A stretch of 64,000 nt of DNA from Candidatus Bathyarchaeota archaeon. Lineage in GTDB: Archaea; Thermoproteota; Bathyarchaeia; 40CM-2-53-6. The notes under the pieces were generated by a model. That model did not search any database, was not told where the DNA came from, and saw nothing but the letters and a program-made list of their open reading frames with translations. Location: positions 960,001 through 1,024,000 of the forward strand of contig CAVSBL010000002.1 of assembly GCA_963726255.1 (NCBI GenBank), in the 5' to 3' direction. Shown here in pieces: positions 57,755 through 59,209 of the stretch (position 1 is its first letter; each line of letters starts with the position of its first letter). Position numbers and translations under genes: made by a program.

Positions 57755-57907
57755 TTAACTGTGATCCCACCACAGGTTGTGGCATCTAGCACACACGACC
57801 TGCGTGAACTCTTCAAACGCAGGCAAATACTCAGTCCGTATCTCCGAAGTGTTTCTCTGCCTCAGTGTTATTTGTCGACTCCCGCAAGCGGGACAAGCAC
57901 ACATCAT
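57755..57907 (-). CDS. Zn-ribbon microprotein A (50 aa)
   Basis: CPACGSR...CARCHNLWWDHS; paralog at 58133. Confidence 0.7.
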   Translation of the reverse strand: MMCACPACGSRQITLRQRNTSEIRTEYLPAFEEFTQVVCARCHNLWWDHS

Positions 57908-57934
57908 GTTTATGGCCGTTAGCGCTAGAATAAC

Positions 57935-57964
57935 GTAATACAATTAAAGGATTTCTGGTAATAC
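57935..57964. promoter_or_regulatory. GTAATAC-N16-GTAATAC operator candidate flanking a TATA-like element
   Basis: gtaatac-aattaaaggatttctg-gtaatac. Confidence 0.6.
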
Positions 57965-58132
57965 TTCTGCGCTGAAGAATCACTGGAGCAGTATGATAGG
58001 GACAGCCTTAGCTGAGTGAATGAAGGTAGAGAATGTTTCTGTCGCCTTCTGAAGAGGCGCATCCCTCTGACAGGCCGCGTACTCTCTCAAAATTGCAGCA
58101 TTCTTCGTCCTTGTAATCATATGAGAAATTTG

Positions 58133-58273
58133 CTACGGAGTTGTATATGGGTAGCTTTGGTCCCACCAAATGTTTACGCAGTTTGCGCATTTGATCTGGA
58201 CAGCCTCGCGAGCGTTGATGAACTCCATATCCCTACTTCCGCAAGCAGGGCAAGTGTCTGCCAACACTTCCAC
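58133..58273 (-). CDS. Zn-ribbon microprotein B (46 aa, absent from the ORF track)
   Basis: GTG start: MEVLADTCPACGSRDMEFINAREAVQIKCANCVNIWWDQSYPYTTP. Confidence 0.7.
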   Translation of the reverse strand: MEVLADTCPACGSRDMEFINAREAVQIKCANCVNIWWDQSYPYTTP

Positions 58274-58290
58274 AAACCTGAACGTGGACC

Positions 58291-58320
58291 GTAATACAAT
58301 TAAGGGATATGGTGTATTAC
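58291..58320. promoter_or_regulatory. GTAATAC-N16-GTATTAC operator candidate in a divergent promoter
   Basis: gtaatac-aattaagggatatggt-gtattac, ending 10 nt before ATG 58331. Confidence 0.65.
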
Positions 58321-58330
58321 TGACGTAGCC

Positions 58331-59209
58331 ATGAAGCGCCGTTATAGTATGACCTTGGACCCGTCCTTAATGCATAAGGTAGACTTGTTAGTCGATGGGA
58401 CGAGGTTCACCAACCGGTCGGAAACGGCTGAATTTCTCATGAAACTCGGGATAGAACAATTCCGACCCGAAAGAACGGCGTTGATCCTATGCGGCGGCCT
58501 TGAAACCAGAGTGAGGCCATTGTCCTTCTCTACACCCAAAGCTCTTCTACCGATAGGGTACCAAGCCTTGGTCGAGTACCAAATTGAATACCTGAAGCAC
58601 TACGAATTTGATAGAATAGTTCTGGCGATAGGCTACCTACAGGAACAGATCGTCCGCTACTTGGACGAACACCGCCTCGGAATACGCCTTCGCTTCAGCT
58701 TCGAGAAAGAACCCCTCGACACGGGAGGCGCCATAAAGAACGCTGAACAGATGATAAGCTCCGATTTCCTAACACTAAACGGCGACGTGATCTTTTCAGG
58801 ACTTGACCTTGACAAATTGATTTCCGCCCACAAGAAAGCCAACGCATTAGCCACCGTCGCATTGGCGAAGTCCAGGACGCCGACGAGGTTCGGGGCCGTG
58901 GAGCTCGATAGCGACAACAGAGTCGTTAGCTTCGTTGAGAAGCCACGAAAACAAACTGCCGGCGAGACGTGGGTAAACGCAGGCGTCTACGTAATTCGCC
59001 CTTCCATCTTCGCCAAGATCCCAAAGGGAAGACGGACTTCGCTCGAGTTGGATGTCTTCCCCAAGTTAATGCGGGAAGGAACAATCTTCGGATACAGACA
59101 TGAAGGATACTGGGCGGATGTTGGAACACCCGAGGACTACCTACGGGTTCAAAAAGACCTTCTCACTGGAGTCCTAAAGCCAATCACAGAAATGCCCGAG
59201 AATGCTTGA
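58331..59209 (+). CDS. Ribbon-helix-helix domain fused to a sugar-phosphate nucleotidyltransferase domain
   Basis: MKRRYSMTLD..L..KVD.LV....F.NRSE..E.L (RHH), then LILCGGLETRVRPL...PK.LLPI, EPLDTGGA, NGD, F.EKP, NAG.Y, YW.DVGTP. Confidence 0.88.
   Translation: MKRRYSMTLDPSLMHKVDLLVDGTRFTNRSETAEFLMKLGIEQFRPERTALILCGGLETRVRPLSFSTPKALLPIGYQALVEYQIEYLKHYEFDRIVLAIGYLQEQIVRYLDEHRLGIRLRFSFEKEPLDTGGAIKNAEQMISSDFLTLNGDVIFSGLDLDKLISAHKKANALATVALAKSRTPTRFGAVELDSDNRVVSFVEKPRKQTAGETWVNAGVYVIRPSIFAKIPKGRRTSLELDVFPKLMREGTIFGYRHEGYWADVGTPEDYLRVQKDLLTGVLKPITEMPENA

Follow-up and report, generated by a model that had tools for sequence, protein, structure and literature searches.

The 64,000-nucleotide stretch of Candidatus Bathyarchaeota archaeon DNA analysed here, referred to as the window (contig CAVSBL010000002.1, positions 960,001 to 1,024,000), encodes a 292-aa protein in which a predicted DNA-binding domain of the ribbon-helix-helix (RHH) type precedes a nucleotidyltransferase domain. 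Divergent from this fusion gene are two short open reading frames (ORFs) for related microproteins with zinc-ribbon signatures, and copies of one sequence, GTAWTAC-N16-GTAWTAC, designated O1 and O2, stand directly upstream of these genes (Table 1). O2 occupies the 57-nt divergent intergenic region, at distances of 10 nt from the fusion ATG and 17 nt from the microprotein 2 GTG; O1 has its end 27 nt upstream of the microprotein 1 ATG and, read on the minus strand, encloses a purine-rich stretch and TTTAATT. As detailed below, the fusion protein is fairly likely to be a ligand-responsive autoregulator, predicted by comparative sequence analysis, from a large and undescribed family of RHH-nucleotidyltransferases. 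The known kinds nearest to it are the ligand-sensing RHH regulators, exemplified by NikR, and enzyme-repressor fusions such as PutA, and its predicted operator and microprotein regulon are unusually clear.

Table 1. Positions in the window of the fusion gene, its domains, the predicted operators and the microprotein genes
Feature	Position	Strand	Details
Microprotein 1	57755-57907	-	50 aa from ATG ATG; long-type Zn ribbon; CPACGSR...CARC.NLWWD
Predicted operator O1	57935-57964		GTAATAC-N16-GTAATAC; half-sites 57935-57941 and 57958-57964
Microprotein 2	58133-58273	-	46 aa; GTG start; short-type Zn ribbon; CPACGSR...CANC.NIWWD
Predicted operator O2	58291-58320		GTAATAC-N16-GTATTAC; half-sites 58291-58297 and 58314-58320
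TATA-like AATTAA inside O2	58298-58303		
RHH-nucleotidyltransferase fusion gene	58331-59209	+	292 aa
RHH part of fusion	58331-58474	+	about aa 1-48
NTP_transferase domain of fusion	58478-59164	+	aa 50-278; Pfam
Loop GGLETR of fusion		+	aa 55-60; E58 codon 58502-58504

The twin motif had been recognized in an initial annotation of the window, and both copies were confirmed. They are the only matches to GTAWTAC-N16-GTAWTAC in the 2.42 Mb assembly of this genome (G000), and in 100 shuffles of the window there was no match. The genome contains 135 GTAWTAC half-sites, with just one further pair separated by less than 60 nt, and that pair is spaced N14. A run of 14 identical bases, cgtaatacaattaa, is present at both O1 and O2, as noted earlier. 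Because each GTA-W-TAC 7-mer is palindromic by itself, the difference between a 'direct' O1 and an 'inverted' O2 is confined to one central base. The O1 block is invariant in four genomes, with variable intergenic DNA adjoining it. Relaxed searches of this genome for N16 sites with one or two mismatches returned 1 and 11 further matches, compared with 1 and 13 for the reversed control pattern, and none is credible. No site was found in the promoters of the triosephosphate isomerase (TIM) and glyceraldehyde-3-phosphate dehydrogenase (GAPDH) genes of this genome, and a search at 1e-10 returned no homologue of the fructose-1,6-bisphosphatase (FBPase) family FBPase_3.

The nucleotidyltransferase part of the fusion is readily assigned. 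In a Pfam scan, NTP_transferase scored 146.7 bits (E 1.1e-42) against a PF00483 cut-off of 21.2, and aa 49-279 are nearest, in sequence and in predicted fold, to GDP-mannose pyrophosphorylases (7x8k, 7d72, 7whr), HddC (5xhw) and MurU (4y7u), with a phmmer E of 6e-38 and a Foldseek E of 2.5e-24. The window fusion shares the EKP, NGD and GTGG motifs of these sugar-1-phosphate nucleotidyltransferases, but differs from them in its extra N-terminal RHH and, within its genus, in a GGLETR loop; at 292 aa, it also lacks the C-terminal left-handed beta-helix domain of the GDP-mannose pyrophosphorylases, which have 360-380 aa. No NCBIfam equivalog cut-off was reached (best 192 bits vs 440). The genome has three more NTP_transferase matches, the best with 40% identity.

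The RHH assignment was built up from relatives. Residues at the N-terminus of the window protein match RHH_1 with an E of 0.085 and 13.3 bits, below the curated Pfam cut-off of 20.5. When a profile of 14 orthologous N-termini was compared with the PDB, the top matches were the RHH domains of NikR (2bj1, E 0.071; 1q5v, E 0.2), with marginal E-values but in register with Pyrococcus and E. coli NikR from residue 3-4 and with the (Y/F)xNRS motif included. The profile matched 157 representatives at E <= 1e-3 among 1.84 billion proteins. Sixty-one of these relatives, each of at least 190 aa, were scanned with Pfam: NTP_transferase follows this N-terminus in 43, of which 12 reach the RHH_1 cut-off, and 20 of the 61 reach it overall, the best at 32 bits. 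NikR_C (PF08753) was not found in the fusion by the Pfam scan, NTP_transferase being present instead. In the AlphaFold2 (AF2) monomer model, with a predicted local distance difference test score (pLDDT) of 86.3, residues 1-10 are extended and followed by helices at 11-20 and 29-43; the RHH region has pLDDT values of 75-86 and the N-terminal strand is unassigned. The N-terminal ~45 residues of this model have the strand-helix-helix topology of an RHH. The domain matches, the NikR-like profile and the modelled topology together uphold the fusion proposed in the initial annotation.

A metagenome scan with distant members confirmed at least 543 relatives, and the RHH-nucleotidyltransferase architecture is a widespread one. 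The source annotations of these relatives read only 'NDP-sugar pyrophosphorylase', and literature searches turned up no description of an RHH-nucleotidyltransferase fusion. Of the 18 scanned relatives with no NTP_transferase, 17 have 206-222 aa and no Pfam domain except RHH_1, and one, of 228 aa, carries HATPase_c. There is a second family of ~206-222 aa proteins, with a NikR-like RHH and a domain with no Pfam match, that includes P0132, P0136, P0138, P0141, P0182, P0192, P0220, P0235, P0246, P0254 and others, one of its members being named 'hypothetical protein [bacterium]'. On one metagenome-assembled Bathyarchaeota contig (L060) the fusion frame is open for 788 aa, continuous with the upstream ORF with no stop between, and may represent a larger fusion protein or else an artefact of assembly or reading frame.

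Conservation of the motif was evaluated in 20 orthologue loci with distinct promoters from the same genus, and across the order in 105 genomes from 25 genera. At all 20 genus loci the motif is located 10-11 nt ahead of the fusion ATG, with GTAATAT as half-site 1 in one case. Within these promoters, 6 of 7 columns are invariant in each half-site and 5 of 6 in AATTAA, as compared with none of the 10 remaining spacer columns and none of the 28 flanking columns. Twelve more distant orthologues (L047-L058) have GTAATAT-N15-GTAWTAY ending 2-11 nt before the ATG, with unrelated spacers and one deviating base each in L053 and L057; directly upstream of another, L059, there is no site. The fusion of family f8 stands third in an operon with GAPDH and phosphoglycerate kinase (PGK) genes, and the site is at the promoter of that operon. 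Order-wide, the fusion N-terminus was found in 37 genomes and the N15/16 motif in 45. When the two tables were cross-read by eye, the motif was present in all 37 genomes with a fusion vs 8 of the 68 that have none, one of the eight being a 73% complete assembly (G094) in which the site adjoins a microprotein. A reversed-pattern control gave 11 matches in total over the 105 genomes, and in fusion-free sister genera the motif occurs in 1 of 22, 0 of 10 and 0 of 3 genomes. The motif first seen in the window thus recurs in related genomes, and its distribution suggests that it is a putative operator tied to the fusion protein.

The same half-site is also found at nikR genes. The single N14 pair in the genome, GTATTAC-N14-GTATTAC (C2:1197998, outside the window), separates cbiM (E 8.9e-54) from a divergent, true nikR that encodes a 141-aa protein with NikR_C (E 8.2e-27; locus L181, G000:C2:1197095-1198537), and the fusion N-terminus aligns with the RHH of this NikR (E 0.003). 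NikR_C is encoded in 88 of the 105 genomes and in all 25 genera. By reading the tables by eye, GTAWTAY-N13/14-GTAWTAY was found no more than about 500 nt upstream of a NikR_C match at 29 sites in 27 genomes, fusion-free genera included, and every one of the 29 nikR-adjacent sites is spaced N13/14. The N14 pair is therefore probably the NikR operator of this Bathyarchaeia order, as predicted from these positions, and, with N15/16 accompanying the fusion, the half-site would be the same for two regulators and the spacing would separate them. E. coli NikR is described as a tetramer that carries two paired RHH domains at either end and binds GTATGA-N16-TCATAC (PMC7055735). The fusion resembles NikR in its N-terminal RHH with (Y/F)xNRS and in a predicted operator whose two half-sites are separated by roughly two turns of the helix, and it shares the GTAWTAC half-site with the NikR promoters of its own order; the analogy with NikR that the initial annotation drew is, in this respect, stronger than had been claimed. 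Unlike NikR, the fusion has NTP_transferase rather than the nickel-binding NikR_C as its C-terminal domain, its sites are spaced N15/16 where those linked to NikR in the same genomes are N14, and nickel is presumably replaced as its ligand by a nucleotide or sugar.

The two microproteins are paralogues, as originally proposed. They share the CPACG, C..C and WW that are invariant in what is here called the WWD family, and substitutions between orthologues pile up at third codon positions (for example, counts of 3, 4 and 15, and of 14, 8 and 30, over the three positions), so that the WWD gene appears to be translated and under purifying selection; on this evidence both ORFs are coding. The family is confined to the genus, being found in 13 of the other 22 genomes of the genus, in three of them as remnants, and in none of the 82 genomes of the other 24 genera. 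An intact copy adjoins the fusion at 10 of the 20 genus loci. Two copies, each with its own operator, are present at four of the 20 loci, including the window, and at least three further loci (L007, L009 and L013) retain degenerate copies in which Cys or WW is missing. Comparison of these loci identifies the twin operators and two microproteins as the product of a lineage-specific tandem duplication.

The core of microprotein 1 is modelled by AF2 as three strands (pLDDT 73). No homologue of microprotein 1 was found in a word-indexed protein database, and a search of the ESM Atlas returned only unnamed clusters with scores <= 0.90. Pfam matches of the microproteins to Zn_ribbon_Brz (E 0.02) and DUF7340 (E 7.5e-5) are both below cut-off. 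Brz is a small zinc-finger regulator encoded beside its target. Like Brz and the haloarchaeal C(P)XCG microproteins, the WWD proteins are small archaeal proteins built on CPxCG/CxxC knuckles. The second WWD knuckle, however, is CxxC followed by N/H and not CPxCG, whereas the first, CPACG, is invariant; no other genus has the C-terminal WW(D/E) signature, and the sequence matches to both groups are all sub-threshold. The C(P)XCG zinc-finger microproteins are reported as archaeal proteins of under 70 aa, some of which contain, instead of zinc, another metal that is most likely cobalt or nickel, with the caveat that AlphaFold2 cannot tell whether a metal is bound (PMC11241148). ORF callers that accept TTG starts extend microprotein 1 (57755-57943, minus strand) and the frames at L003, L006, L010, L017 and L019 into the operator, where TTG TAT TAC in the half-site is read as L-Y-Y and results in spurious 'LYY...' N-termini.

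With the fusion promoters and the known second WWD site left out, there are 40 additional motif sites, 32 in fusion-bearing genomes and 8 elsewhere. A Cys-rich ORF of 28-90 aa, with at least two CxxC, that points away from the site and starts -10 to 100 nt from it, is present at 19 of the 32 and at one of the 8, vs 1 in 1000 random positions. The distance between site and ORF in these 19 cases is 5-91 nt, with one overlapping by 8 nt, and inspection by eye added four more (L141, L143 and the three-Cys L160 and L179). Small zinc-ribbon ORFs are, by this survey, the commonest other putative targets of the motif, and they fall into several families besides WWD (family a). Members of family b have 38-39 aa with 10-11 Cys (..CFVCG..CVCCPEDGHVCCRDWGE.DCPVCGP) and are encoded 27-30 nt from an operator site, at a great distance from the fusion, in G002, G003, G009 and G022 (L141-L143, L174), which are genus members with no intact WWD copy. 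The composition of the family b peptide is metallothionein-like. Family c proteins have 35-40 aa with CPHC..(D/E)YY(L/I)HI..C..C, are present in several copies per f2 genome and once in f8, and have summed codon-position differences of 214/178/485. Family d proteins have 67-85 aa and are found in family f6. A common origin of families a and c is unsupported, as hhalign gave a probability of 5% and aligned only CPxC. Despite this, their operator-promoter units can be aligned, with a common layout in which a half-site, a purine-rich run of ~9-10 bases, TT(T)AA(A/T)T and the second half-site follow one another, 22-30 nt ahead of the start codon, and O1 likewise aligns with the microprotein promoters of other families.

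Some sites are associated with central carbon metabolism. In G093 and G025, a site is positioned between the genes for FBPase_3 (E 4e-151) and TIM, and the f8 site is located between a microprotein with an archaeal GAPDH on one side and GAPDH-PGK-fusion on the other. The sites in the window are at the promoters of the fusion and the two microproteins, the regulon initially proposed, but the distribution in other lineages suggests a wider putative regulon that includes FBPase, TIM, GAPDH and PGK genes, and hints at a signal from the hexose-phosphate or nucleotide-sugar pool. The two genomes with the FBPase_3 site also have a conserved ATAATAC-N16-ATATTAC with a palindromic spacer, 41 nt before an ATP-dependent DNA ligase gene (L171, G093:C79; L172, G025:C15).

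The consensus of the catalytic loop in sugar-1-phosphate nucleotidyltransferases is G-G-x-G-T-R(L/M). The loop of the window fusion deviates from the PF00483 type in having GGLETR in place of GGxGTR, and the Glu is invariant in the genus (variants LETR, LESR, LEPR, FETR and MESR). The remaining motifs, GT(A/G)G, NGD, EKP and NAGxY, are conserved in the fusions, and the window protein retains the R and K of the loop region. In many distant fusions the catalytic loop is degenerate. The change from GGxGTR to GGxE(T/S/P)R in this genus may, judged by the motif, record a shift from enzyme to pure sensor. Orthologues from other families in the order have GGLGTR, and family f8 has GGLGV(N/K) or GGLGIK. 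The 'enzyme-derived sensor' of the initial annotation is thus perhaps true of this genus alone, and outside it the family may, from the canonical loop, include active enzymes.

The promoters of more distant fusions provide a family-wide view of the half-site. In 70 non-redundant metagenome promoters, the top non-TATA word is GTATGA/TCATAC, present in 28 at 9.4 times expectation and the same as the E. coli NikR half-site, with GTGTGA/TCACAC and GTAATA/TATTAC also enriched. At least two core matches occur in 18 of the 70 promoters, whereas 17 of 1400 control windows and, among 3500 shuffles, 89 have as many; the step from one TCAYAY copy to the next is 10 bp for 20 of 26 pairs, and most copies are 41-60 nt ahead of the ATG. 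In NikR, R3, T5 and T7 are the residues that contact bases. Where the residue aligned with T5 is Thr (n=50), there are 22 TCATAC-type pairs and one GTAATA-type pair; where it is Ser (n=6), the corresponding numbers are 0 and 3, and the Bathyarchaeia fusions have Ser or Cys at this position and a GTAATAY half-site. Covariation of half-site type with this beta-strand residue is suggestive, on a small number of Ser cases.

These observations can be brought together in a model in which RHH domains pair into dimers and an oligomer, joined by the enzyme-fold domains, presents two such dimers to two palindromic 7-bp half-sites with centres 23 bp apart. RHH domains are characteristically obligate dimers whose shared two-stranded sheet reads the major groove of DNA. 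The half-sites flank the TATA-like element, as well as, towards the microproteins, a purine-rich stretch that resembles a TFB-recognition element (BRE), so that occupancy would exclude TATA-binding protein (TBP) and transcription factor B (TFB). Exclusion would then repress the fusion gene together with both microprotein genes, the divergent one (microprotein 2) and its duplicate (microprotein 1), and a nucleoside triphosphate (NTP), sugar-1-phosphate or NDP-sugar in the pocket of the enzyme fold would set the affinity for DNA. The genes appear to be leaderless or to have short leaders, with start codons within 10-30 nt of the sites. DNA binding by the fusion, the sign of the regulation, the oligomeric state and the ligand are what we infer from this arrangement.

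Other explanations were considered. As the half-site is shared with nikR, the N16 sites might belong to a true NikR regulon, responding to nickel or cobalt, with the fusion and Cys-rich microproteins as its targets. The GTAWTAC pair between nikR and cbiM in this genome, the 29 nikR-upstream sites in 27 genomes and the probable cobalt or nickel content of some haloarchaeal C(P)XCG microproteins (PMC11241148) would all fit. But spacing divides the sites, those at nikR being N13/14 without exception, and N15/16 follows the fusion even though NikR_C is so much more broadly distributed; some sites are at carbon-metabolism genes, and in four genomes (G021, G009, G029 and G104, assemblies 80-95% complete) the fusion and motif are present with no NikR_C match, which speaks against NikR binding the N16 sites. 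We consider a NikR regulon improbable. Still less probable is that the motif is mere promoter sequence, a TATA box and BRE with their flanks, copied along with a duplicated microprotein gene and with no dedicated regulator. Duplication does account for twin sites at the four loci with two WWD copies, the conserved block does contain a TATA-like element and half-site 1 of the distant orthologues is where a TATA box is expected; duplication does not account for identical palindromic 7-mers that flank the TATA at a constant distance with 10 variable bases between them, nor for the same pair in front of genes that are not homologous (FBPase/TIM, GAPDH, the fusion and microproteins of three or four unrelated families), nor for the near-absence of the motif from fusion-free sister genera.

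A different possibility, unlikely but with more in its favour, is that the fusion is primarily an active sugar-1-phosphate nucleotidyltransferase, with the RHH autoregulating enzyme supply as in PutA and with the microproteins incidental, sharing a bidirectional promoter. It would explain the canonical GGLGTR in orthologues outside the genus, the conservation of the other motifs and the R and K retained in the window protein, and there is a precedent, as PutA is a trifunctional protein with an N-terminal RHH on a proline utilisation enzyme and is subject to autogenous repression (PMC5293562). Sites that precede microprotein genes remote from the fusion, in the four family b genomes and in 10 f2 genomes, count against this possibility, as do the invariant Glu in place of the third Gly, the degenerate loops of many distant fusions and the three other NTP_transferase matches of this genome.

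Several observations nevertheless weigh against the fusion being the autoregulator. The RHH call for the window protein is derived from sub-threshold scores and transitive homology. The genomes compared are related, so that the counts of fusion and motif are not independent and co-occurrence overstates independence. The half-site is identical to that of NikR promoters, which makes cross-binding by NikR possible in principle, and the GTAATAT half-site 1 of the distant orthologues is at the TATA position expected for a leaderless mRNA, so that promoter function could lie partly behind its conservation. The neighbouring microprotein is absent or decayed at 10 of the 20 genus loci, and at L028 (G020:C23:19500-23700; assembly 88% complete) a short-type WWD microprotein is encoded by a phosphoenolpyruvate (PEP) synthase gene with neither a fusion nor a GTAWTAY pair there, so the coupling is not obligatory. 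Inspection by eye revealed no Cys-rich ORF at nine of the 32 additional sites of genomes with the fusion. Some of these are probably chance matches; four or five of the sites have that appearance. The Ser-vs-Thr correlation is based on six Ser loci, two of them close relatives. There was no RNA run among 20 sequencing runs that contain the locus, with run type guessed automatically.

In architecture the fusion is also like PutA, which has an RHH joined to the N-terminus of an enzyme. PutA, unlike the fusion, has enzyme domains of unrelated kinds (PRODH and P5CDH), is bacterial and is switched by membrane association. In NadR and BirA, a helix-turn-helix (HTH) domain is fused to an adenylyltransferase or ligase, and proteins of the TrmB family are archaeal sugar-sensing regulators of glycolysis and gluconeogenesis. 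The concept is the same, in that the DNA binding of one domain is governed by another, of enzyme type or sugar-binding, to which it is fused, and the sites at FBPase, TIM, GAPDH and PGK genes parallel the control of gluconeogenic genes by TrmB-type regulators; all three, however, use HTH rather than RHH, with unrelated effector domains and no homology to the fusion.

Bathyarchaeia are abundant uncultured sediment archaea, and literature searches turned up no characterised regulator from them; at this locus, a testable transcription factor, operator and target set are obtained from sequence alone. If the model is correct, a DNA-binding head and its half-site have been kept while the sensor domain and the spacing changed, to give two regulators per cell, one for N14 and one for N16. 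Microproteins are a poorly understood gene class, and the link to a defined predicted operator makes the function of those described here directly testable. A more extended scheme, which as a whole we regard as quite unlikely, is that NikR-derived RHH heads combined with nucleotide-sugar-binding enzyme folds constitute new archaeal metabolic regulators that, in Bathyarchaeia, would sense the nucleotide-sugar/hexose-phosphate pool. One operator would then serve the regulator's own gene, gluconeogenic genes (FBP aldolase/phosphatase, TIM, GAPDH and PGK) and fast-evolving zinc-ribbon microproteins that would act post-translationally on central-carbon enzymes, for example, the co-transcribed GAPDH or the adjacent PEP synthase.

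The genes around the locus encode PEP synthase-type, histone-deacetylase-family, Fe-S assembly and GMP synthase proteins. A scan of the locus for sigma-70 promoters and terminators, with models ill-suited to archaea, returned nothing above shuffled sequences. In the 168-nt gap between O1 and microprotein 2, positions 57992-58057 (plus strand) have a weak match to the C/D-box small RNA sR4 (E 0.52; 18.2 bits, where the gathering score is 50) that is poorly kept in the three other duplication-bearing genomes. The DNA sequencing runs in which the locus is present are from freshwater sediment, soil, peat and wetland. Three contigs filed as Acidiferrales, Acidoferrum and Methylomirabilota metagenome-assembled genomes (L030, L040 and L043) have 87-90% identical fusion N-termini and the same operator, and are probably mis-binned Bathyarchaeia.

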